Shown here piece by piece: positions 1,066 to 24,292 of a stretch of DNA of 64,000 nt. Source of the DNA: Laetmonice hystrix (taxonomy: Eukaryota); assembly GCA_965235115.1 (NCBI GenBank), contig OZ249439.1:8122001-8186000 (forward strand), read 5' to 3'. A program made the translations under genes and the position numbers. How positions within the stretch are numbered: the first letter of the stretch is position 1; every line of letters starts with the position of its first letter. A model generated the notes under the pieces. That model saw only the letters and a program-made list of their open reading frames with translations. It did not search any database and was not told where the DNA came from.

Positions 1066-2147
1066 TGTAATATGGGACACTGTTAATTATCACTGTAATA
1101 TGGGACAGTAACCTTAACTATGACGTGTGGGACATTGATAAATATCACTGTAATATGGGACAGTAACCTTAACTATGACGTGTGGGACACTGTTAATTAT
1201 CACTGTAATATGGGACAGTAACCTTAACTATGACGTGTGGGACATTGATAAATATCACTGTAATATGGGACAGTAACCTTAACTATGACGTGTGGGACAT
1301 TGATAAATATCACTGTAATATGGGACAGTAACCTTAACTATGACGTGTGGGACATTGATAAATATCACTGTAATATGGGACAGTAACCTTAACTATGACG
1401 TGTGGGACATTGATAAATATCACTGTAATATGGGACAGTAACCTTAACTATGACGTGTGGGACATTGATAAATATCACTGTAATATGGGACAGTAACCTT
1501 AACTATGACGTGTGGGACATTGATAAATATCACTGTAATATGGGACAGTAACCTTAACTATGACGTGTGGGACATTGATAAATATCACTGTAATATGGGA
1601 CAGTAACCTTAACTATGACGTGTGGGACATTGATAAATATCACTGTAATATGGGACAGTAACCTTAACTATGACGTGTGGGACATTGATAAATATCACTG
1701 TAATATGGGACAGTAACCTTAACTATGACGTGTGGGACATTGATAAATATCACTGTAATATGGGACAGTAACCTTAACTATGACGTGTGGGACATTGATA
1801 AATATCACTGTAATATGGGACAGTAACCTTAACTATGACGTGTGGGACATTGATAAATATCACTGTAATATGGGACAGTAACCTTAACTATGACGTGTGG
1901 GACATTGATAAATATCACTGTAATATGGGACAGTAACCTTAACTATGACGTGTGGGACATTGATAAATATCACTGTAATATGGGACAGTAACCTTAACTA
2001 TGACGTGTGGGACATTGATAAATATCACTGTAATATGGGACAGTAACCTTAACTATGACGTGTGGGACATTGATAAATATCACTGTAATATGGGACAGTA
2101 ACCTTAACTATGACGTGTGGGACATTGATAAATATCACTGTAATATG
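1066..2147. repeat. 55-bp tandem satellite array, left part (about 19-20 copies), interrupted by the LTR element
   Basis: Unit cactgtaatatgggacagtaaccttaactatgacgtgtgggacattgataaatat recurs with period 55 (taata at 1261 and 1316); copies are near-identical. Confidence 0.97.
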
Positions 2148-2603
2148 TGTTAACATTTCTTTTGGTAGTTGGGAGAATAACTCAGTAGAGTCGTCGCTTG
2201 AGTTTTGAAGCTTTAATTCCTGAGGTACACGGTTGTCTTCTTCGACCAATATGCACCACGCGGTCAGTATATATATTCGTTATCTTCGTCAGTCTCTATC
2301 TCTCCTTCTCTTCTTCAGCATGTCTCCCCTCCTTTAAGGGGGTTTCCGTCATAGTCTAATGGACGGACACCGATCATTGGCCGGTGACCTACGACCAATT
2401 AGCTGGTCGCCCCCTGACTGACTCCTTTGATTGACAGCTACCGCCCTGATGGCTGTCATAGGTATGACGGGCTTGTTCAGTGGTGCATAACGGTCGAAGC
2501 TGAGACAACAATACAGTGCCATACAATGAATGGTATACCACGAGAAAACACACGCTAGGACTACTCTACAACAGGTTACATGGATACAAATGATATCTTA
2601 TCA
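2148..2603 (-). repeat. 3' LTR (456 bp)
   Basis: Plus strand tgttaac...cttatca; no difference from 13504-13959 found by eye; imperfect terminal inverted repeat TGATAA/TTAACA; ATTAAA on the minus strand at 2212-2217 is a candidate poly(A) signal. Confidence 0.98.
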
Positions 2604-2612
2604 TCCTCCCCT
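2604..2612 (-). promoter_or_regulatory. Polypurine tract (PPT)
   Basis: Minus-strand AGGGGAGGA directly abuts the 3' LTR. Confidence 0.85.
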
Positions 2613-3631
2613 GCTTTAATTTACAAACCATCCACTGGTTGTCTTTATAAAATAAGGTATTAGATAACATATATATTATGAAATATCATACAGAAATATA
2701 TATATCGCTTGACAGCTTGCAGTTATTGTTCTCCACCAGGTTATCTTTTCCAAGGTAAAATAACCAAAACCTTTGTTAGTTTCTCTCGTTAAAATAAAAC
2801 TGGGTTATGCAACTCCTTATAAAAGCTCGTATATAAAACTATGGAATCAAATATAATTATCATACCGATACCATAACACAGGGTTCAAACATCATGCGGG
2901 ACGCACCCACTAATTGCGACTTTACGCAAGTAATATTACACATCTACACTATTCAAACTATTTCAAATTTGAACAAAGAACTAAATCCATTACGTCCACT
3001 GAAAGTATGAGCTGGTTCCTCAACCTATATTACAATTAAAATGTTCAGAAATTTGTACCACCTATAATACTCTAGGCTTCTCCAAATCAGAGACGGAAAT
3101 AATCTCGTTTCAACTTTATAACATACACCGCTCATAGTTAATAAACATAGTACATAAAAACGTTCACTTTAAACACAATTTCCTGGAATCACGTGATTAC
3201 ATTTAACTCGTAATGTTATAAATCTGATCCCTAAGTAGTTTCCACCACCCTATATGACATAAAGCATAAACAATATAACGACTACCTTTCTTGAAACTAC
3301 ATTTTTGCGACTATAGTGTTGAGATCATCTGTCCAAACAAACGGGAAACATAACGTCGAAAAAGGTGCATCAACAAATGTCTATGACGTCAGTCTGGGAG
3401 ACGTAAGGACCGCGCTCAGGGGTCCGGTAACGGGTATCCTCCTTAGTCTCGTAGGCGTCGGTGGTGTTCGGGAAAGTCCACGCCAAGTACCTGTCCAAGT
3501 GAACAAAACATGCAGCCACTCAAAGGACAAGGAGCAACACAGCCTAGATTTCCCTATTTTTATGAGACAAGTGGATCTGTGGTTGACGTAGCGACAAAAA
3601 AAATATCTAAGCCTTTCGTTTCCCACCTCCC

Positions 3632-3681: not shown

Positions 3682-6258
3682 TTATGGGGTTTCCTCCTGC
3701 AACAATGGATACAATCCTTCCTGATGTTCAGGGACTACTTTCTCATTTTCTCCATCGGTTTGTTTGTCCTTGATGCTGCGCAGGCAGGTTATTGCCCTAT
3801 TCCTCTTTACGACGATTTCCTGACCAAAGGTAGCATTTTTACTTTTTTTCAACAGCAAATCTAGCTGTCGTCCATACCAGCGGGACACGTGGATAGATAT
3901 TTCCATTTTTGTTTCCGTCTCCTCACCGTGGACCACTAGCCTGACGCTGTCATCGGCTCTAATATTGATATAGCTTGACAGCCACTTATGTTCTGCCCAA
4001 ATTTCAAAATTGGACGGGACGAAAATATAGTCAACGTCCTTTTGGAGATGATACAGCTTCATCAGGGGAAAAACCATAACTTTGTCGGGAGTTCCCAATC
4101 TGATGAAAAGTTCGGTCTGGTTCTTTAATTCGTCTGGTACATGCCAGTGTGTGTCAAGGTCCGCAAAGGGTATTGCCACTTTTCTCGCAATGAAATTGAC
4201 AAGTCTTTTAACACAAAGAAACAAACGTTTTAGTGACAGGATGACCAACAATGTCACAACACAAACCAAAAGTATTTCGATCAGTGTGAAAGAATATACT
4301 TTCTCAACGGGCGACGCTGCGGTACTAACGATCGCCTGCTTGGGGAAAGATTTGAGCAAGATTGGCTCAGGTTCCGACATCGCCTCAGCAGTTTGGTACA
4401 TTGATACTAAAATAAGGATTTGCCTGTATTTATAAAAGGCAAATATTCCTGGCAAACACATAATAAAGCCAATAATGACTAAAATGACGGTGGCAGTGCT
4501 TACCGCAGGAAGATTCGACCAATGGCCTATCTGCGACTTCTTAGGCTCATATTCGCGGATCATAGACGCCAAATTATTTAGCGATAATCCGACATGTCCG
4601 ATTTCTTTAATGTAATGGTGGTTTGTATAAGAAGAGTTATCAGTCAAGATTTTGAACTTTTGAGTCAAGAGTGAAGTGTTGTCAAAATCAACACTTATGT
4701 TAAATGTTTTCAACACGGGAATGTTTATTACATTCGTCGGCTCAACCATAGTTACCATGCACTCTGTCGACATGCCTCTTAGAAGGCGTCCCCTCAGCGA
4801 GGCCTGACAATGACAGGGAAGAGTCAAAAGACAGAGTGAGCACGACCTATAAGTTTGAGACCTGCCATCTCCACATAACACAGACATTTGTTGCTCTGGA
4901 GAGGAGACTAAATATCGGGAGTTTCCTAATCCTATAACAACGTCTGGAATCAATTGAGTGGGATGTGCAATAAAATGGCACAACTTCAGTGTTTCATCAA
5001 TTTTGTTTTGATAAAGTGCCCATTCGCAAGTTGAATACTTATTAAAATATCTCAGGAGAGGATTCTTACATGTGACTAAGATGTTTCTGGTACATGTAGA
5101 CATGTCTTCCTCCCGTAGCAGGACATAATGTGTCCCTCTGACGGATACTCCTATGTATCTGTTATTAATAGATATTACGGAATAACCTTTGCCATTATTT
5201 TGGTCCAGTGGCACGGGAAAGGTGCCGATTTGAAACAAATTGAAGTGAGAATCAGCCTGGACCAATGGTACTCGCAGATGTACATATAAACGTCGATGTG
5301 TGTACTGGAAATACGCCAGGTGATTGTTATAAAAAAAACTAAGGTCACCTGTTGCCAAGTCATAACCCTTGTCTAACTGTTCTTTTACTGTAAGTAAAAT
5401 GTCCTTTAAATCAGAAGGTTGTACTATGTCAGAAGTCAATATGCCGACCCGCAGCTGTTCGAACCCCCTCACAAAATCCACAACCTTTTGGTTATATTCA
5501 TTAATTAACAAAATCCTTGCCTGTATAATGGTCACATATGAGGTTAAATAAACTTGCCAGAGTCGAGCCATTGAGTCGTTTTTGTTACGCCGATTCAAAT
5601 CTAATAACATTTTTTCCGTCAAATGTCTGAATTTGGTATTGACCACATCCTGAGTTAGAAATCTTCCTTGAATGAGCGACAAGGCGTGTGCTGTGTCGTT
5701 TATAAAAACCAACGTTTGGTTTTCTAGGAAGGATACTTTCTGCTGAGTCTCTGCCATGACGTCCGCAAGAGCATTCAAATTTTGCTCTATGGGCCGAATG
5801 TCCGTTACCAAGGCTACTCCAAAAAGATTCCTCTGGAGGGAACCTACAAAGCCAAATGGTACCATTCGTCTTTTCCTGGCTTCGGTCTCGGAAACAGGAA
5901 ATTGAAACAGGTCATTTAAAACGTTGTGTGATTTCTGGACCCGTTGGAGTGAATTATAATAAGTCTGATTTAGCTTGTTAAGATATCCCTGGACACCTTG
6001 ACACAATTCAGGGAAGTACGGAGTGGGTGCCAGTTTTGATAGACGGACCCCACACGGTGATATAGGCATTCGTTTAGTCAGGTTCTGTACCTTTGGTCTG
6101 GAAATAGTCAAGACTAACTCCCTGAACTCCGAAGTTTCAACATAAACTTCTGGGAGTTTTTGGAATGTAACGCCATAATGTTCTCTTGAGAGAATACGGG
6201 CGTCGGCATTGTACACCACAAGAGTCAGCAGTATGCCTATCCACCGAAAACAAGCTCT
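3682..6258 (-). CDS. env: Envelope/fusion glycoprotein of the baculovirus-F/errantivirus-Env type, main exon (858 aa) with a C-terminal extension
   Basis: Signal-peptide h-region RACFRWIGILLTLVVYNADA; furin site RKRR (5866-5877) followed by fusion-peptide-like MVPFGFVGSLQRNLFGVA; heptad-like helices; Cys pattern CTRNILVTC..CEW..LCHF..CSLC..PCHC; N-glycosylation sequons; TM1 about 4432-4494, TM2 about 4231-4290. Confidence 0.92.
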   Translation of the reverse strand, partial: RACFRWIGILLTLVVYNADARILSREHYGVTFQKLPEVYVETSEFRELVLTISRPKVQNLTKRMPISPCGVRLSKLAPTPYFPELCQGVQGYLNKLNQTYYNSLQRVQKSHNVLNDLFQFPVSETEARKRRMVPFGFVGSLQRNLFGVALVTDIRPIEQNLNALADVMAETQQKVSFLENQTLVFINDTAHALSLIQGRFLTQDVVNTKFRHLTEKMLLDLNRRNKNDSMARLWQVYLTSYVTIIQARILLINEYNQKVVDFVRGFEQLRVGILTSDIVQPSDLKDILLTVKEQLDKGYDLATGDLSFFYNNHLAYFQYTHRRLYVHLRVPLVQADSHFNLFQIGTFPVPLDQNNGKGYSVISINNRYIGVSVRGTHYVLLREEDMSTCTRNILVTCKNPLLRYFNKYSTCEWALYQNKIDETLKLCHFIAHPTQLIPDVVIGLGNSRYLVSSPEQQMSVLCGDGRSQTYRSCSLCLLTLPCHCQASLRGRLLRGMSTECMVTMVEPTNVINIPVLKTFNISVDFDNTSLLTQKFKILTDNSSYTNHHYIKEIGHVGLSLNNLASMIREYEPKKSQIGHWSNLPAVSTATVILVIIGFIMCLPGIFAFYKYRQILILVSMYQTAEAMSEPEPILLKSFPKQAIVSTAASPVEKVYSFTLIEILLVCVVTLLVILSLKRLFLCVKRLVNFIARKVAIPFADLDTHWHVPDELKNQTELFIRLGTPDKVMVFPLMKLYHLQKDVDYIFVPSNFEIWAEHKWLSSYINIRADDSVRLVVHGEETETKMEISIHVSRWYGRQLDLLLKKSKNATFGQEIVVKRNRAITCLRSIKDKQTDGENEKVVPEHQEGLYPLLQEETP

Positions 6259-6421
6259 CTGCAAACATAAAGAAGTGACAATATGCCGTAAACCTATAAT
6301 ACGTGAAGATTCATGGTCCTTTTGGAGCCACCTAAGAACAACATCAGTTGTTCAAATTCCAAGAGTGTTACTGAATATACTTGTAATTTTTAAAATGTAA
6401 CTGTGCGATTTAACAACTTAC
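6259..6421 (-). other. Predicted 163-nt spliceosomal intron in env
   Basis: Minus strand gccATG|GTAAGT ... tcacttctttatgtttgcAG|AGA GCT TGT. Splicing is phase 0 and places ATG in front of the signal peptide, which otherwise has no in-frame ATG. Confidence 0.8.
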
Positions 6422-6460
6422 CATGGCTGTTGCTTTCTTCCAATCGCTATTAGCTTCCAT
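6422..6460 (-). CDS. env: Predicted env initiation exon (MEANSDWKKATAM, or only the last ATG)
   Basis: Two in-frame ATGs (6460 and 6424) in good Kozak context (agcATGG, gccATGG), the second ending exactly at the GTAAGT donor. Confidence 0.7.
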
Positions 6461-7139
6461 GCTATCAAAACCAAAGTAGATCTATGGACCACGCTGCACA
6501 GCCGTGTATCCTGATCTCATGTGGAATCCTTATAGGACTCTTTCACATACATGTGTATAACTCTCTGAGGTGAGGGGTCTACTGAGTATCCGGAGACCTG
6601 GGACCGGTTCACCAAGATCTCCAACTCAAACTTTTGACTCCACCCACCCAGAAGATACTAATGAATATTCATGAATAGCATGTTACCAACGCCTACTTTG
6701 CAGGGCTATCACGTGTCTGACTCTGCCTAGAGTCCAAAGTGGACTCTAAATATACAATGAATACCAGATATAATTAAACACCTGTTGCGGCCTCCGTCCC
6801 TCTTATGTTGAAGGCGGTCCGACAGGAACAAATAACAGGGTTACCCTATAATTGGCACCCCTTGATACAGACCATACTACGAGTCTGGTGGCATTTCACA
6901 CCCAGGTATACAACTGTAGTACCTGCCGTCTTTGTCGAACAGTAAAGCAACATCATTCTATTGCAGTCATGTAACCATCTTGTCTCTCTAACTAGCAGAC
7001 AAAGGTGGGTGATACAACAAAGGTTCAATTACGGGCTGCGGTCAAGCGGCTTATTTCCGACCACCCCTTTGTTGACCGGCCGTAAAGTCGCGGTGGTAAT
7101 GCAACCATGTGTTGTTTCTGCTATCAGCCGCTGTAGCGA

Positions 7140-7376
7140 CTATCCATTCACACCATATGTAAAGTAACATGTGGGAATGACTAAGCTTTGAAGTTTATGT
7201 GGCTTTACTTCAAGTGAATGTTTATCGCCGTGTAATCCCTCAATATAAATGCGGGAATAGACATGGTGGTTTGTGTAATGGTTAGTACCCCTTTGGCCGG
7301 AATCTAAAAACAATCCCAACGGTGGCAATTTCCTAGGTTTATTGCTATTCACACGAATCATCTGAGGGGTTTCCAT
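7140..7376 (-). CDS. Possible 78-aa accessory ORF between pol and env
   Basis: ATG in gtaATGG context about 45 nt downstream of a strong acceptor (tttcttcctgcttttcccCAG, AG at 7419-7420); no recognisable motif. Confidence 0.3.
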   Translation of the reverse strand: METPQMIRVNSNKPRKLPPLGLFLDSGQRGTNHYTNHHVYSRIYIEGLHGDKHSLEVKPHKLQSLVIPTCYFTYGVNG

Positions 7377-7531
7377 TACCACTAGGACATTACTCGAGGC
7401 AAACTCTTAACTGAAATACTGGGGAAAAGCAGGAAGAAATGATTTCGTTATATTACTTCCCACGGGTTAAAAATTGAAATCAAAAAGAGCTAAAGTTTAG
7501 AAAAATAAATCTACCCCTTATATGGTTAACT

Positions 7532-10500
7532 TTAATCGAGTTTTCTCAAATTTCTATTGCGTAGGTTATACCTTAGCTCTGGTACATCTAAATCTCCGTC
7601 AATATATTTGCACCTTGCCTCTTTATTTAGGAATGATTCTGGGACCCAGACATTATCACCGTCTTGATAACTCACTAGGACGATAAGTTCGCCATTCCTC
7701 TTGTTGAGTTTATCAATCGCCTTTATTGGGAAAAAAGGACCTGTGCCGGCTTTCTTTGCTTTGGGTACCTTCTGGTCATCAGAATCTATTGCCTCATCTT
7801 CACTCAGTGCATCTGACTCCTCAGCTTCAATTTCGCCGTCAGAATAAACTGACTCTGCATCATCATCAATTTCATCTTCTTGAACCGGATCTGAGATAAA
7901 ACTATCGTCAGGGAAATCGCATTCCTCGAGCTCAGCAGGATCCTCATATTCCACCTCGAACTCGGGCCACCTTTCCTGTAGTTCTTCTCGATTTAGGCTC
8001 TTCTTTAGTCTATGAGTTGTGACAGGTTTGGTCATGAATTTTCCGGTCGTGGTGTGTTTCAACCACACCGTACTGTCGGTATGAAACGCTACTATAACGT
8101 AGGGACCATGGAAAATTTTAGCCAACTTCAGTTTTGTTGTCTGATCATTTAGTCTGGGCCAAAACAACCACACCCTATCGCCTTCACTTAGTTTGGGGTC
8201 ATGAACGTGTTTGTCATACCGAAGCTTCATGTTCTTTTGAGTTTCCTTAAAGGTCACTCGAGACTTTTCATGAGCATTTTTCTGGGTTTGGAGTACTTCA
8301 GCAAACCGGTCCTGAACCGTGCCATCTCCGCCCAGATCAAGCTTCACATTGGTTTCTATGGGGTTTAGTGGGTCGTATCCGTGGCAAAGTAGAAAAGGTG
8401 TTACCCCCAACGAGTACGCCTCCGTGGTGTTCAGAGCAAACAGTACCTCTGGAATACTTTCGTCCCAGTTATTCTGTTTTTCATTCACAAAAGTTCTTAA
8501 CACGTTTAATACTGACCTGTTTGCCCTTTCTACTAAACCACTAGTTTGCGGATGAGCAACTGTTGAAAAAGACTGAGTGATATTATACCGTTCACACATT
8601 ATCTTAAATTCCTCTCCCACAAAGCATTTTCCATTATCGCTTATAATTCTCCGTACCCCTCCGACTCTACAAATGACATTGGCAAAGAATCTCTCTGCCA
8701 CTGACTTAGCCGTGAGGTTAGGCAACGGAAAGGCAATGGTATATCTCGAGTAGTAGTCCACAACTACTATCAGGTGTCTGTTACCTTTCCTTGATCGTGG
8801 GAGCCTTTCTAACGCATCAATGTTAACGATATGCCAAGGCCTAGGACTAGGATCCCTCAGTGTGAGCGGCGGCCGAATAGGATGAGTCATCCGTTTGGTT
8901 TGAGCGCACACATCACATGAGTTACAATATCTGTGAATATCTTGACACATGCCAAACCAGAAATACTTTGTCCTCATAGCGCTAAGCATCTTTTGGGAAC
9001 TCAGATGAGCGCCAATCAGTGAGTCGTGATGCACCTCCAAGATCACTTTCCTTAGATTCCTTGGGATAACCAACCTCGCATGTGTCTCTGCTTTAGGACC
9101 CAATGTCGTATGGATGTTATACAGAATATCATCACTGATTATGAAATTCTCCTCCAAGATCGTCACCCTTTTTGCTCTGGCCTCATCCTCGGGGAGTTCT
9201 TTGTCCTTTAAGAATTTGATTAAATCTGAGCTAAATTCATCCCTCACCTGTGCATCTCTAACACACTGTGCTGATAAACCTAGTCCTTCAAATGTTAATC
9301 TATACTGAGTTTGCAAAATATCAGAATATTTCAGTCGCTTACGGTTGTTTGGGGACTTTTTGTTTGATCTCTGGGATGAACTGACCTCGTCTGCCTTGAC
9401 TTGACCCAGACTGTTTATGGGCAGTTCCTCGACTTTCGGCAAATCTAGCTCTTTGGGATCCTGGTACAGATCGTTGATGACGCCCATTATTTGGGTTCTG
9501 TCTGCAATTGCGCTTGCATCTGTGATCTGACTTAACTCAAGGCATCTTTCAATGAACTCCTCAACTCCCGGTGAGATGACCTCTACTTTATCTTGCTCTT
9601 CTGGTCTTGAAAGCGCATCGGCGACAACATTGCTCTTACCTTTTATATGTTCAATCTCGAACTGGAATTGATTTAGGAAAGCTCGCCATTTGCTTTGCCT
9701 CAAGGTGAACTTGCCAGAATCTCCCAAGATATATTTCAGAGCTGAATGGTCAGTCCTTATTTTGAATTTCCTGCCAGTTAAATACACTTTCCAGTACTCG
9801 ACTGAGTAACATATTCCCAGTAGTTCCTTGTCAAGTGTACTGTACCTGTTTTGACTTTCCCCAAACTTTTTACTTAGGAAAGCTACTGGGCGTTCCCTAT
9901 TGTCCTGATCGAGCTGACTAAGGCAGCCACCGATTCCAACTCCAGACCCGTCAGTGGTCAAAATGAATTCCTTTTGGAAATCGGGATACATCAAAACAGT
10001 ATCTGACGTCAAGGTATCTCGAAGTGTCTCAAAAGCCTTCTGATGTGTTTCTGTCCATTCCCATTTACTTTCACCTTTTGTTAGACCATACAAAGGATTA
10101 GCAAGTTTGCCATACTTTGGAATAAAGCGGCGATAAAATCCGGTGATTCCCAAAAATCGCCTCAACCCTTTGACATTTGTAGGGGGCTGTAAACCTTGAA
10201 TCACCTCAATCTTCTGTGGGTTAGGTTTAATGCCAAACTCTCCGATAACATGGCCTAGGAATAGAGCTTCTTGACACGCTATCTTAGTCTTGCTGGGCTT
10301 CAGTTTAAGCCCTGCGCCAATCAACCTTTGCAGCACCTCTTCCACACCTGCCAAATGTTCTTCCCATGTTCTGGATGGAATAATTATATCGTCAACATAA
10401 ATTAGGATGCTTTCAAAGGGTATACCCCTCATGATCATATCGATCAACATTTGGCAAGATCGTGGGGCATTTTTCATACCCATTGGGAGAACCTTATACC

Positions 10501-10816
10501 TGTACTTACCCATTGGTGTTATGAAGGCGGTTTTGTCTCTATCAGACTCTTTAATGGGGATTTGGTGAAATGCGCTTTGAAGATCGCACACGGTTATGAA
10601 CTTTGGTTTGATTGTACCCACAGCGTCAATAGTATCCTCCACGCGTGGGACGTTGAGGAATTGATCTATTGTTTCCCTATTCAAGCCGCGATAATCACAA
10701 ACCAACCTATCGCCCCCATCGCTCTTTTTGACCAAGAACGCGGGACTTGCCCATGGTCCACTGTTCGTTTCCTCAATTATCCCTAATTCTAATTGATCTT
10801 CGACACACCTTTCCAT
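7532..10816 (-). CDS. pol: Pol C-terminal part: reverse transcriptase, RNase H, integrase, acidic linker, chromo-like domain
   Basis: RT motifs PWASPAFLVKK, DLQSAFHQIP, YVDDII; RNase H TDGSGVGIG, ELLGI, TDHSAL, ADALSR; integrase HHCC (H..H..CDVC), D-D-E (IDAL, SDNG, GLVER) and GPY; C-terminal DNVWVPESFL. Confidence 0.97.
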   Translation of the reverse strand: MERCVEDQLELGIIEETNSGPWASPAFLVKKSDGGDRLVCDYRGLNRETIDQFLNVPRVEDTIDAVGTIKPKFITVCDLQSAFHQIPIKESDRDKTAFITPMGKYRYKVLPMGMKNAPRSCQMLIDMIMRGIPFESILIYVDDIIIPSRTWEEHLAGVEEVLQRLIGAGLKLKPSKTKIACQEALFLGHVIGEFGIKPNPQKIEVIQGLQPPTNVKGLRRFLGITGFYRRFIPKYGKLANPLYGLTKGESKWEWTETHQKAFETLRDTLTSDTVLMYPDFQKEFILTTDGSGVGIGGCLSQLDQDNRERPVAFLSKKFGESQNRYSTLDKELLGICYSVEYWKVYLTGRKFKIRTDHSALKYILGDSGKFTLRQSKWRAFLNQFQFEIEHIKGKSNVVADALSRPEEQDKVEVISPGVEEFIERCLELSQITDASAIADRTQIMGVINDLYQDPKELDLPKVEELPINSLGQVKADEVSSSQRSNKKSPNNRKRLKYSDILQTQYRLTFEGLGLSAQCVRDAQVRDEFSSDLIKFLKDKELPEDEARAKRVTILEENFIISDDILYNIHTTLGPKAETHARLVIPRNLRKVILEVHHDSLIGAHLSSQKMLSAMRTKYFWFGMCQDIHRYCNSCDVCAQTKRMTHPIRPPLTLRDPSPRPWHIVNIDALERLPRSRKGNRHLIVVVDYYSRYTIAFPLPNLTAKSVAERFFANVICRVGGVRRIISDNGKCFVGEEFKIMCERYNITQSFSTVAHPQTSGLVERANRSVLNVLRTFVNEKQNNWDESIPEVLFALNTTEAYSLGVTPFLLCHGYDPLNPIETNVKLDLGGDGTVQDRFAEVLQTQKNAHEKSRVTFKETQKNMKLRYDKHVHDPKLSEGDRVWLFWPRLNDQTTKLKLAKIFHGPYVIVAFHTDSTVWLKHTTTGKFMTKPVTTHRLKKSLNREELQERWPEFEVEYEDPAELEECDFPDDSFISDPVQEDEIDDDAESVYSDGEIEAEESDALSEDEAIDSDDQKVPKAKKAGTGPFFPIKAIDKLNKRNGELIVLVSYQDGDNVWVPESFLNKEARCKYIDGDLDVPELRYNLRNRNLRKLD

Positions 10817-11960
10817 TCTCTTTTTGCTTCTGGTGCCATCCTGTATGGTAATTTCTGAGTATTCTTTGGATGCGCCACCAGCTGTATTTCGTGTTCATAC
10901 AAATGTGTTAAGCCTAATTTCCCGTCAGGGCCCACAAATGCTTGGTTGTTTCTTTTTAATACTTCATTCATCTGTTGCTTTTGATCCTCAGTGATATTTG
11001 CCCCAGAGAAATCTACATTTGGGAGGAAATCTTCTCCCGATTCTACCTTGGGTTTGCTAGTGGCTGAGAATACCGTAGGCTTTTCCCTACCAATCCTTTG
11101 TGTATGCAGGTTGCCAGGCTCATTTGCTCTAACTACATTTATACAGGGTGTTAACTCCATCTCTGCCAAATAACCTAAATTAGACCCTGCCGTCAACGTT
11201 CGAGCATATGGGTTCGTATTCAGCAGTCTGAGATAAACGGTATTATCCTTAACTCTGACCAGTCCTTTCATGGCCAAGATTTTAAGTCTTTTCATGCTTC
11301 CTGAGGTAGTTACTACTCCTTCCCAGCCCTCTAGGTTTTGATCTGAGACCAACTCACCCTTTGTCCAGATCTCACTGTGGGGTGGCATCACTATTGTACG
11401 TGTCAGTTTGATATCAGGGGGTCCATGGATTTTGGGTCTTTTTCTGTTAAAATTTATTGTCATTCCATGATCTCTAAGGAAATCGTTACCCAGGATGACC
11501 TCCGTGGTCAAATATGGCAATACTAGGAAATTTTGCGTGTACTCGGATTCCTTTAGTCGTACCTTTAGGGTTAATTCGCTATCTGCAGAGACAGTTTCGC
11601 CTCCTGCAAACGTGCAATGCATGGTTGTCGGGAGTAGGGTGTGGGGAATATTTCTTTCAACAACCTCATTAAAAATGTCTCTACTAACCACAGATCTTGT
11701 AGCCCCTGTGTCAATTAAGGCTGTGTAACCCCCACCACCAATGAATAGCTGAACGCAGTTGTCCTCAGACAAGATACAATTATGTGGACTTTCCTTACCT
11801 GACCAGTGTTGCTGATGCCCAGTCTTTTGCGGTGAATTCAGGATGCTGTTGTCATTGATCTTGTCTGGACTTGTCTGCACTTGGGGTTTATCGTCAGCAT
11901 TTTGTTTTGGATTTTGTGGAACATTCCACTCCCCCGCAGGAATGTTCCGGTCTAGTTTTC
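10789..11960 (-). CDS. pol: Pol N-terminal part: aspartic protease plus degenerate dUTPase-like domain
   Basis: LIDTGATRSVV (DTG at 11704-11712) and VILGNDFL. The frame is open from the gag slippery site (GKLDRNIPAGEW...QVQTSP). It ends in RT-entry sequence HEIQL..PYRMAPEAKRE and is one base out of frame with the RT ORF. Confidence 0.95.
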
Positions 11961-11961
11961 C
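11918..11961 (-). promoter_or_regulatory. -1 ribosomal frameshift signal at the gag-pol junction
   Basis: G GAA AAC directly before the gag TAG, 6-nt spacer, then a perfect 10-bp stem GGAACATTCC/GGAATGTTCC with an 11-nt loop; the -1 frame is the protease frame. Confidence 0.85.
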
Positions 11962-13445
11962 TGAAACTTAACCAAGAGTGACTTCATCTGCTCCATCATG
12001 GTCTTCATTTCTCCAATCTCTGAAGATGTTGTGTTGGCCAGTGGTTCTGGTGGTGTTACCGTGTTACCAGGAATGGCCTGCATGCTATTTTGAGCGGACT
12101 GTCCGGCAAACTGGTCTCTCCCTTGCATTCTTGTGGTTCTCTGGTATGGGCGTTGATTCCCTTCCGCAAAGTAGCAGTCCTTCTTTTCGTGATTGTTTCT
12201 GCCACATATATCGCACTTTTGGACTTTTCTTTGGGCCCACTCCTTCTGTTGTCCCCAAGATTTAGCTGACGGCTTTCCCTGAGAATTTTGGCCTACCGCG
12301 TTGGGGTGTCTTCCGTTTCTGGTGCGATCCTGATTGAAGTGACTGTGTTGGTAGTGAACTGCACCTTTTGCACCTTGGTTTGAGGACTTCTCCTCCCTAT
12401 TCTTCTCTTTCCTTTGATGTTCTTCTTCCCACTTTGATCTTTTTTCAAGATCAGCGACAGTATGTTTCACCAGGTCAATGCTTGGGAGGGTTTCCCTGAC
12501 CTTTTCTGTTGCCATCTCATACGTCTCGATATCATTATTATGTATGGCGTTCCTGTATTCAGGCAAGACATTGAGTTTAAAAATTATGAACTTCTGTTCA
12601 TTGGACAGCCTAAGGCGTTTTGCCATGCATTCGAACCGACAGATGAATTCTTCCTGTGTTTCTGTCCGTTTCATGTCATTGAGGATCTCTGTGCGCCACT
12701 CCTCACTATTAACGCCAGTGAAACGTTTTAGGAAACGGCGCCTGAAGTCGTCATACCCCTTGAATTCGTGGTCAACATTCGTGTACCACACCAATGCCTG
12801 CTCGTCCAAAAATGACCACATCGTGTTCATCACTTGCCCCTTCCAGTCACTGCCAGACGCATCATACAGATATGTGTGATACGCCTCCATCTTGGAGATC
12901 CAAGTTAGAGGGTCTTCTTTATCTGTTCCCCTAAACGGTTTCGGCGCCTTGACATCAGGACTGATGTTTGGCCTTTTCTCGACGTTTCTCATCTCGTTAT
13001 GTCGAACCATGAATTCCAGCATCTGCTCTTGCTGCCTTTCAGTTTGCTGAACCTGCATACGCATGAATTGTTCCGTTTGCTCCTGCCATATACGCAACAG
13101 CGAACTCACCTGCTGACTGGTTGTATCTTTTGCCGCTGTTTGAGGGTTTTCTTTCTCTCTATTTTGTTGGGGAATTTCTGGCCCTTGGTTTCGTTGTACC
13201 AACACAACCTCAGCGTCTTCCCCTGGCGGATCCATTGTGCGTGATACTAAGGAATGTCTGGTATCTACCTTTACTGTTGTTTTGCCTTCCAGCTGATACA
13301 GGTCGGGCTGGTGTCTCCGTAAGCTGCGCGCTGGTCCAGTTGGCTTGATACTCTTTTCCGCCGAATTTGCGCCTCTTACGGTGGTAAAACTGTCCGATTC
13401 GTCCTCGGATGAGTCAGCAAGTCTGATTCCTCGATGACTTGACAT
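11952..13445 (-). CDS. gag: Gag (497 aa) with capsid region and one CCHC zinc knuckle
   Basis: PKPFRGTDKEDPLTWISKME capsid-start motif; CDICGRNNHEKKDC (12174-12215); Q-rich helical N-terminal region; position immediately after the PBS. Confidence 0.95.
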   Translation of the reverse strand: MSSHRGIRLADSSEDESDSFTTVRGANSAEKSIKPTGPARSLRRHQPDLYQLEGKTTVKVDTRHSLVSRTMDPPGEDAEVVLVQRNQGPEIPQQNREKENPQTAAKDTTSQQVSSLLRIWQEQTEQFMRMQVQQTERQQEQMLEFMVRHNEMRNVEKRPNISPDVKAPKPFRGTDKEDPLTWISKMEAYHTYLYDASGSDWKGQVMNTMWSFLDEQALVWYTNVDHEFKGYDDFRRRFLKRFTGVNSEEWRTEILNDMKRTETQEEFICRFECMAKRLRLSNEQKFIIFKLNVLPEYRNAIHNNDIETYEMATEKVRETLPSIDLVKHTVADLEKRSKWEEEHQRKEKNREEKSSNQGAKGAVHYQHSHFNQDRTRNGRHPNAVGQNSQGKPSAKSWGQQKEWAQRKVQKCDICGRNNHEKKDCYFAEGNQRPYQRTTRMQGRDQFAGQSAQNSMQAIPGNTVTPPEPLANTTSSEIGEMKTMMEQMKSLLVKFQEN

Positions 13446-13483: not shown

Positions 13484-13498
13484 CCGGGTTCTCCTCCA
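13484..13498 (-). promoter_or_regulatory. Primer-binding-site candidate
   Basis: Minus-strand TGGAGGAGAACCCGG begins 5 nt after the 5' LTR; TGG is complementary to tRNA CCA. The primer tRNA is not established. Confidence 0.6.
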
Positions 13499-13503
13499 CT
13501 TTA

Positions 13504-13959
13504 TGTTAACATTTCTTTTGGTAGTTGGGAGAATAACTCAGTAGAGTCGTCGCTTGAGTTTTGAAGCTTTAATTCCTGAGGTACACGGTTGTCTTCTTCG
13601 ACCAATATGCACCACGCGGTCAGTATATATATTCGTTATCTTCGTCAGTCTCTATCTCTCCTTCTCTTCTTCAGCATGTCTCCCCTCCTTTAAGGGGGTT
13701 TCCGTCATAGTCTAATGGACGGACACCGATCATTGGCCGGTGACCTACGACCAATTAGCTGGTCGCCCCCTGACTGACTCCTTTGATTGACAGCTACCGC
13801 CCTGATGGCTGTCATAGGTATGACGGGCTTGTTCAGTGGTGCATAACGGTCGAAGCTGAGACAACAATACAGTGCCATACAATGAATGGTATACCACGAG
13901 AAAACACACGCTAGGACTACTCTACAACAGGTTACATGGATACAAATGATATCTTATCA
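13504..13959 (-). repeat. 5' LTR (456 bp) with TATA-like box
   Basis: Copy of 2148-2603; TATATATA-type run at 13624-13632, upstream (in minus orientation) of ATTAAA at 13568-13573. Confidence 0.98.
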
Positions 13960-14240
13960 TATGGGACAGTAACCTTAACTATGACGTGTGGGACATTGAT
14001 AAATTTCACTGTAATATGGGACAGTAACCTTAACTATGACGTGTGGGACATTGATAAATATCACTGTAATATCTTAGCTATATAACGGTCACTGTAATAT
14101 GGGACAGTAGCTTTGGTGAAAGTAACGTTTACTAATAACAATATGGGACTGCAGCTAGTGATTCTGACGTTTACTGATAACAATCGATGTAGTATGGGAC
14201 AGTAACGCTGTAATGTGGGACACTGTAATGACGTTAACTA
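13960..14240. repeat. 55-bp satellite, right part (about 2 intact units, then degenerate)
   Basis: Resumes in register (tatgggacagtaacc...) exactly after the LTR end and decays after about 14071. Confidence 0.9.
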
Positions 14241-23463: not shown

Positions 23464-24292
23464 CGTCCAGCCAGACCTGGGCAGGCCCGACCACCGTCCA
23501 GCCAGACCTGGGCAGGCCCGACCACCGTCCAGCCAGACCTGGGCAGGCCCGACCACCGTCCAGCCAGACCTGGGCAGGCCCGACCACCGTCCAGCCAGAC
23601 CTGGGCAGGCCCGACCACCGTCCAGCCAGGCCTGGGCAGGCCCGACCACCGTCCAGCCAGGCCTAGGCAGGCCCCACCACCGTCCAGCCAGGCCTAGGCA
23701 GGCCCGACCACCGTCCAGCCAGACCTGGGCAGGCCCGACCACCGTCCAGCCAGACCTAGGCAGGCCCGACCACCGTCCAGCCAGACCTGGGCAGGCCCGA
23801 CCACCGTCCAGCCAGGCCTAGGCAGGCCCGACCACCGTCCAGCCAGACCTGGGCAGGCCCGACCACCGTCCAGCCAGACCTGGCCAGGCCCGACCACCGT
23901 CCAGCCAGACCTGGGCAGGCCCCACCACCGTCCAGCCAGACCTGGCCAGGCCCGACCACCGTCCAGCCAGACCTGGGCAGGCCCGACCACCGTCCAGCCA
24001 GACCTGGGCAGGCCCGACCACCGTCCAGCCAGACCTGGGCAGGCCCCACCACCGTCCAGCCAGGCCTGGGTAGGCCCCACCACCGTCCAGCCAGGCCTGG
24101 GCAGGCCCGACCACCGTCCAGCCCGACCAGGACAGGCCCGAGCCACCCGACCACCGTCCAGCCCGACCAGGACAGGCCCGAGCCACCCGACCACCGTCCT
24201 ACCAGGCCGAGACTGACCCCACCACCGTCTTGCCCGACCAGGGCAGGCCCGAGCCACCCGACCACCGTCAAGCCAGGACCGACCCGAGCCAC
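23464..24292. repeat. 31-bp GC-rich minisatellite, degenerating rightwards
   Basis: cgtccagccagacctgggcaggcccgaccac; period 31. Confidence 0.95.

Follow-up and report, generated by a model that had tools for sequence, protein, structure and literature searches.

How is the envelope (env) frame of a retrotransposon translated when no ATG precedes its signal peptide? The question is raised by an 11.8-kb Ty3/gypsy LTR retrotransposon on the minus strand of the window, that is, the whole stretch of 64,000 nucleotides of Laetmonice hystrix DNA which was analysed here. The original prediction, which put the env start codon on a mini-exon behind an intron of its own, falls inside this element, and the parts of the latter are as follows:

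13504..13959, minus strand: 5' LTR, 456 bp, TG...CA, 100% identical to the 3' LTR
13487..13498, minus strand: PBS-like site, a TGG-led motif 5 nt past the LTR
11952..13445, minus strand: gag ORF (Ty3_capsid E 4e-5, below the curated cut-off)
7532..11967, minus strand: pol, with a protease frame (11967-10789) and an RT-RNaseH-integrase frame (10894-7532)
6259..7531, minus strand: pol-env gap, 1273 nt, candidate internal promoter region
3682..6258, minus strand: main env exon, 858 aa (Pfam Baculo_F E 2.9e-13, above the cut-off)
2604..2617, minus strand: polypurine tract
2148..2603, minus strand: 3' LTR, 100% identical to the 5' LTR

The LTRs, the PBS-like site, the polypurine tract, the 4-bp target duplication CATA at the flanks, the order of the Pfam matches (gag, then PR-RT-RNaseH-INT, then env) and the F-type env are those of an env-carrying Ty3/gypsy element, a young one with identical LTRs. 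Two gag ATGs are in frame, the first at 13445 in a weak context and the second at 13235 in a strong one, and the gag and pol frames overlap by 16 nt. In some of the relatives considered below (L046, L054, L075, L076, L079 and L009), gag and pol share one frame with one stop between them, a readthrough-like arrangement. Despite the identical LTRs, pol of this copy bears a frameshift early in RT (about 10790-10890, minus strand); in the relatives it is one continuous PR-RT-RH-INT protein. The close Pol relatives of the element are mostly unnamed. The 'ancient' and 'insect' errantivirus groups were defined by the place in the Pol tree and by a 'mini' domain after RNase H (PMC13524379), and our element resembles the 'ancient errantiviruses' of that account: a Ty3/gypsy arrangement of gag, pol and env, near-identical LTRs and an env of the F type are common to both (PMC13524379). 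It is embedded in a 55-bp minisatellite (window positions 1073-2147 and 13959-14072), and the rest of the window is rich in tandem arrays. Other large ORFs of the window were discarded as tandem-repeat artefacts, and an ARAGORN call of tRNA-Pro at 24121-24210 (minus strand), inside a G+C-rich tandem array, is probably spurious.

The env frame is intact over its 858 codons. It carries a short hydrophobic signal segment (residues 7-15), a furin-type site (128-131), a fusion peptide and two hydrophobic segments, near residues 590 and 658, of the kind expected for a transmembrane segment; the predicted product is an F-type fusion protein. It had been claimed that this frame lacks an ATG before the signal peptide, and we confirmed it: the first methionine is residue 66, counted from TTG 6264. 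In none of the three registers upstream of position 6259 does an ATG read through, unspliced, into the signal segment. The idea that an upstream ATG was lost through a local indel in this copy was rejected, as all three registers end at a stop without an ATG. Beyond the other end of the frame, GTAAGT occurs two bases past the env stop (3679-3634, minus strand), followed by a 38-nt A run and an acceptor at 3491, which could be an intron of the 3' UTR; a general intron of this kind was rejected, since only 3 of 11 relatives have a donor of at least 3.5 there.

Sites were scored by a weight matrix that was not trained on the host, applied to all AG and GT sites of the element. By this measure the acceptor at 6259, directly ahead of the env frame, ranks first among 867 AG sites. 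Relatives were gathered from metagenome and genome collections with a degenerate furin-site and fusion-peptide pattern; of the 51 loci that matched, 48 carry an F-type env. An earlier DNA pattern had given 22 loci, with a single F-like one, which lacked pol in its stretch, had an RNA-virus-like neighbour and was excluded. Env as the query, whether by itself or in a pair, gave no loci; a search with pol returned 10, two of them with env, and one of these (L009) was used, while the other, the insect-type L002, lay outside the splice-site analysis. From the resulting 49 relatives we removed 12 with cut or broken N-termini and one near-duplicate (L063, of L081), leaving 36. Those represented by DNA are distant, at 20-24% identity in env and 27-37% in pol. 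Four env-bearing retrotransposon contigs (L081-L084) come from Sedimenticola MAG records and are likely to be host DNA in bacterial bins.

An acceptor scoring at least 3.5 lies ahead of the signal peptide in 26 of these 36 relatives, as against 13 of 108 control windows taken from the ectodomain (one of the 26, that of L057, was set by eye, as were the PBS positions). Its phase is 1 in 19 of the 26 (L033-L084), and in three (L046, L074 and L076) no in-frame ATG occurs within 120 nt past it. The closest env relatives, available as proteins only, form one cluster of 12 at 43% identity and read V-H-F-Q-I-M before the signal segment, which is consistent with a phase-0 acceptor followed by a methionine of their own. 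A search for env relatives with shorter N-termini found none. These comparisons of sequence give good support to the view that env requires a splice at 6259. As an acceptor precedes the signal peptide in so many relatives, Env N-termini called from open frames alone would often be wrong.

The opposite view would be that nothing is spliced at 6259, and that env is either started from a near-cognate codon on an unspliced RNA made by an internal promoter, or left untranslated in this copy. Two such codons, TTG 6264 and ATT 6282, do lie in the env frame, and the env RNAs of Tor3b and Tor4b are unspliced (PMC4402516). On the other hand, several out-of-frame ATGs lie upstream of env, the long frame has remained open, and this view would leave both the best acceptor of the element and its frequency among relatives without a role. 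The Tor type of env expression, an unspliced env RNA with an ATG in the env frame, is not what we find here, as no ATG reads through to the signal segment. We therefore regard the absence of splicing as very improbable.

Acceptance of the 6259 site leaves the matter of its partner. It had been proposed that this is a donor abutting an ATG, in the motif ATG/GTAAGT at 6424-6416. The geometry of the proposal proved right, the intron being 163 nt long, GT-AG and of phase 0, with the ATG in phase with env, and all motifs quoted with it are where they had been placed on the minus strand (ATG at 6424-6422, GT at 6421, AG at 6260-6259, TATAAG at 6534-6529 and AG at 6463-6462). The in-phase ATG at the donor stood as well, and only the notion of an exon with a single codon had to be given up, as an earlier in-frame ATG at 6460 extends it to 13 codons:

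6422..6460, minus strand: predicted coding mini-exon, 13 codons (39 nt), with in-frame ATGs at 6460 and 6424
6259..6421, minus strand: predicted intron, 163 nt, GT-AG, phase 0, 34% G+C vs 43-45% in its flanks

Both ATGs have A at -3 and G at +4, a good Kozak context, and they are the only ATGs between 6505 and the donor. The mini-exon is purine-rich and carries the sole GAAGAA of the pol-env gap. The 6421 donor ranks fifth among 701 GT sites, and no other donor outside coding frames scores above 4.1. When the 1273-nt gap was shuffled with its dinucleotides preserved, a donor as strong as this appeared in 380 of 3000 shuffles; in 78 of the 3000 such a donor had an ATG in phase no more than 60 nt away, and in 31 an ATG abutted it. 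In shuffles of the last 420 nt, a donor with an in-phase ATG at up to this distance was found in 44 of 3000. With the cut-off loosened to 5.1, the rates for the gap rise to about 40% (donor), 10% (in-phase ATG) and 2.5% (abutting ATG). The abutting pair of ATG and donor is rare by chance. The best change point of G+C content within 7300-6259 is at 6420, one base from the donor; a change of this size was reached in 66 of 500 shuffles, and a change point at 6485 fits nearly as well.

Sister sequences, about 99.6% identical to the element, are present in contigs from three runs of one sample in one study. Across 9,783 nt, one of them (X1) has 34 substitutions and 10 gap letters relative to the element, and between copies as close as these selection on the donor would not be visible. 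The pol-env gap varies between sister contigs by substitutions and indels; in 6259-6460, the sole change in X1 is a one-base indel at 6290, which falls in the predicted intron and leaves the ATGs and splice sites intact. The original prediction looked to sister copies precisely lacking 6259-6421 as a check of the intron; among the DNA contigs, which drop rare variants, we found none, and no joint of gag to env either. Conservation of the ATG/GTAAGT motif was not seen at the distances available, exact ATG/GTRAG being present in 0 of 23 distant relatives with at least 300 nt of upstream DNA.

A quite different partner for the 6259 acceptor is offered by gag. The original prediction had pointed to a gag donor at 13379, which is indeed in phase with 6259; with a score of 0.03 it was rejected as the main gag donor, and a much stronger in-phase site had been overlooked:

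13104..13112, minus strand: strongest donor of the element, CAG/GTGAGT, GT at 13109, rank 1 of 701 GT sites, score 8.2
13374..13382, minus strand: gag donor ACC/GTAAGA, GT at 13379, phase 0, score 0.03

The 13109 donor is of phase 0, lies 336 nt past the gag ATG and is in phase with 6259. When the 500 nt at the start of gag were shuffled, a phase-0 donor of at least 8.1 arose in 5 of 3000 cases, and one of at least 6.6 in 64 of 3000. An in-frame donor early in gag is what characterizes the Idefix type of env splicing, at 340-394 nt in the Drosophila elements, and judged from the sequence our element has one. Env could be made by one ordinary splice from 13109 to 6259, with ATG/GTAAGT at 6424 being a chance motif in a long intron, and the closeness of the Drosophila precedent (340 nt in Idefix; PMC12992720) speaks for such a mechanism. 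Translation of Env would then begin in gag, at one of its ATGs, which would place 42 or 112 residues of Gag ahead of the signal segment. This is the cost of the gag donor, as the 9-residue hydrophobic core would come to lie 48-118 residues from the N-terminus. A hydrophobic core so far inside a protein serves less well as a signal peptide than one at the N-terminal end. A splice from gag would also leave unexplained the local ATG and donor, a motif expected by chance at 1-3%, and the strength of the 13109 site is tempered by three further donors of at least 6.6 in the pol coding sequence, which have no evident role and indicate that strong donors arise in coding DNA. Splicing from gag accounts for the sequence nearly as well as a local exon does, and we hold it to be the less probable of the two; were it used instead of a local exon, the element would be an ordinary one.

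Relatives speak to both donors, if weakly, as those with DNA are distant. Among 23 loci with at least 300 nt of upstream DNA, six have a local donor (within 400 nt of the acceptor) of at least 3.5 with an in-phase ATG, as compared with a mean of 1.4 in shuffles, none of 300 of which reached six. Controls in the wrong phases gave 7 hits over two phases (3.5 each) vs the 6 in phase, and at cut-offs of 5 and 6 a local in-phase ATG and donor are retained in 1 of the 23. Three of the six local hits fall in the pol tail, on Gly-Lys/Arg codons of a chromodomain-like tail, and such hits may be by-products of the codons. Of the six full-length relatives, four (L009, L046, L076 and L079) have their highest-scoring donor with an in-phase ATG locally, at 3.0-7.3, with nothing in the 5' region exceeding 0.9; the absence of a matching 5' donor in these four argues against the route from gag. 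Two of the relatives with a local donor, L046 and L076, have no env ATG of their own, and L009 reproduces the layout of our element in its non-coding gap, with an ATG, an in-phase donor and a 187-nt intron. The gag route fits better in L081, where an in-phase gag donor lies 34 codons past the ATG. L054 needs no upstream ATG; it has a TATA box (TATATAAG) at -295 and a donor at -219.

A separate observation concerns donors near the 3' end of pol, within its final 200 nt. All six of those found there (in L046, L047, L079 and L081, among 9 loci) are in the phase of the env acceptor, phase 1, and the density of donors in this tail is 3.3 per kb vs 0.9 in the pol body, the 200-nt limit having been picked after the data were seen. 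The sites coincide with Gly-Lys/Arg codons, and no weight was placed on them in choosing between the routes. The best pol-tail donor of our element, at 7675, scores 3.0 and is of phase 0, like its acceptor. Pol-tail donors could belong to local first exons inside pol or serve a spliced fusion of Pol to Env, or else they could simply follow from the codons.

If the mini-exon is used, the question arises of how its transcript begins, and three features ahead of it bear on the answer:

6462..6463, minus strand: modest acceptor ahead of the mini-exon, score 2.6, rank 25 of 867
6529..6534, minus strand: TATAAG, possible TATA box, chance-level, one of two occurrences in the gap
7419..7438, minus strand: second-strongest acceptor, rank 2 of 867, 113 nt past the pol stop

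Two routes had been proposed, an internal promoter marked by TATAAG and double splicing through the acceptor at 6462-6463. TATAAG is present at the position given; it carries little weight as evidence, being at the level of chance with its two occurrences in the gap, and the case for a promoter leans on the precedent of Oikopleura Tor3b and Tor4b. In these, an LTR-independent internal env promoter, Penv, lies in the 3' end of pol or in the pol-env gap (PMC4402516). A promoter in the gap derived from an LTR was rejected, the best match between LTR and gap being 11 nt long (E 0.2).

In double splicing, a 5' donor of an LTR transcript would first be joined to 6461 (or 7418); removal of the 163-nt intron would follow, and the mini-exon would thus be internal. 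The env RNAs of foamy viruses can be doubly spliced and have small upstream exons (PMC7828637), the 40-nt exon so defined is purine-rich, and the AG one base before the 6460 ATG gives the AG/CATG layout seen at the env acceptors of L054 and L066. However, the 6462 acceptor is modest, and the leader, from 13620 to the gag ATG, has no donor above -1.4, which leaves room for a weak or non-canonical one. Nor was a start-bearing exon with its donor found in the leader, so that a route of the ZAM or gypsy type is not evident, there being no usable leader donor. We prefer the promoter because of this want of a leader donor, because a splice from a phase-0 gag donor into the 40-nt exon would lose the env frame, and because entry at 7418 would place 19 ATGs ahead of 6460. 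Of the two routes proposed, double splicing is thus the weaker, and we judge it unlikely. An ATG-started ORF of 78 aa (7376-7140, minus strand) follows the 7419 acceptor; it has no Pfam or Atlas match and could be a possible accessory message.

Our best explanation, on which our confidence is evenly balanced, is therefore a short local first exon, likely to be transcribed from an internal promoter and spliced over the 163-nt intron to 6259. The RNA would start near 6505, from a promoter in the pol-env gap, and this would make 6460 the first ATG; translation would begin there or at ATG 6424. Removal of the predicted intron would then join the 6421 donor to the 6259 acceptor. Genomic RNA driven by the LTR would have to escape this splice, because the copies keep the intron. 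The proposed partnership of 6421 with 6259 is in our estimate more likely than not, in competition with the in-phase 13109 gag donor and its Idefix precedent. Both donors may be in use, the one in gag giving a second env isoform alongside that from the local exon.

Comparison with known systems shows what would be new in such an arrangement. In Drosophila iERVs, env-F takes its start from a peptide exon, from an AU dinucleotide (the gypsy/springer group) or from the 5' part of gag (PMC12992720). The first env exon is a 29-44-nt exon before gag in ZAM, gypsy5, tirant and HMS-Beagle2, and consists of the first 340, 355 and 394 nt of gag in Idefix, quasimodo and rover, respectively (PMC12992720). 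Our element shares with these a main env exon without a start, which would be supplied by a small upstream exon (PMC12992720); the 39-nt coding length of the mini-exon is of the ZAM and gypsy5 size, and the place of the 13109 donor is that of Idefix (PMC12992720). In contrast to the candidate 163-nt intron, which lies before env and behind pol, the Drosophila exons are located in the leader or gag, and one long intron removes pol. Tor3b and Tor4b differ from the present case in making their env RNAs without splicing, whereas a first exon and an intron are predicted here (PMC4402516).

Foamy-virus env RNAs are singly or doubly spliced, with small upstream non-coding exons and a start in the env exon (PMC7828637). 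They are unlike the arrangement predicted here in that their small exons do not code and their internal promoter serves tas/bet, not env. BARE1, of the copia type, has a 104-nt facultative intron which is spliced in translated RNA and kept in genomic copies by means of separate RNA pools (PMC3735527); a short intron kept in genomic copies is common to both elements, but that of BARE1 lies at the gag-pol border and yields Gag, with no env (PMC3735527). A 2025 review states that env is singly spliced from full-length RNA without exception (PMC12789967), and the original prediction took single splicing from the leader or gag region as the norm. This was worded slightly too firmly in view of the published Tor promoter, doubly spliced foamy env RNAs and retained intron of BARE1. 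More than 1,500 env-carrying gypsy elements have been catalogued across animals (PMC13524379), and the main text of that catalogue contains neither 'splic' nor 'internal promoter' nor 'subgenomic', env expression not being described there. Our literature search, which covered few subscription papers, yielded no description of a retrotransposon env directly preceded by an ATG-bearing mini-exon and a short intron. All the ingredients are known from other systems; their combination did not turn up in the literature covered. Should the local exon be real, the novelty would lie in this combination of a start-bearing mini-exon, a short intron and an internal promoter before env, which would be an uncommon route to an envelope.

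With a real local exon, env could be run as a small independent gene and be controlled separately by tissue. A strong short intron would then have to persist in packaged RNA, although introns are usually lost when RNA is reverse-transcribed. Whether the same applies beyond this element is a more tentative matter, and we consider it somewhat doubtful that many non-insect errantiviruses, this one included, carry a self-contained env gene, with its own promoter in the pol tail or gap, a start-bearing first exon and an intron of 100-400 nt that is kept in genomic RNA. If this reading of the clade is true, the output of envelope would be uncoupled both from LTR transcription and from the splicing of genomic RNA, and such elements would represent a third mode of env expression, beside splicing from the leader or gag and the unspliced transcripts of the Tor promoter.
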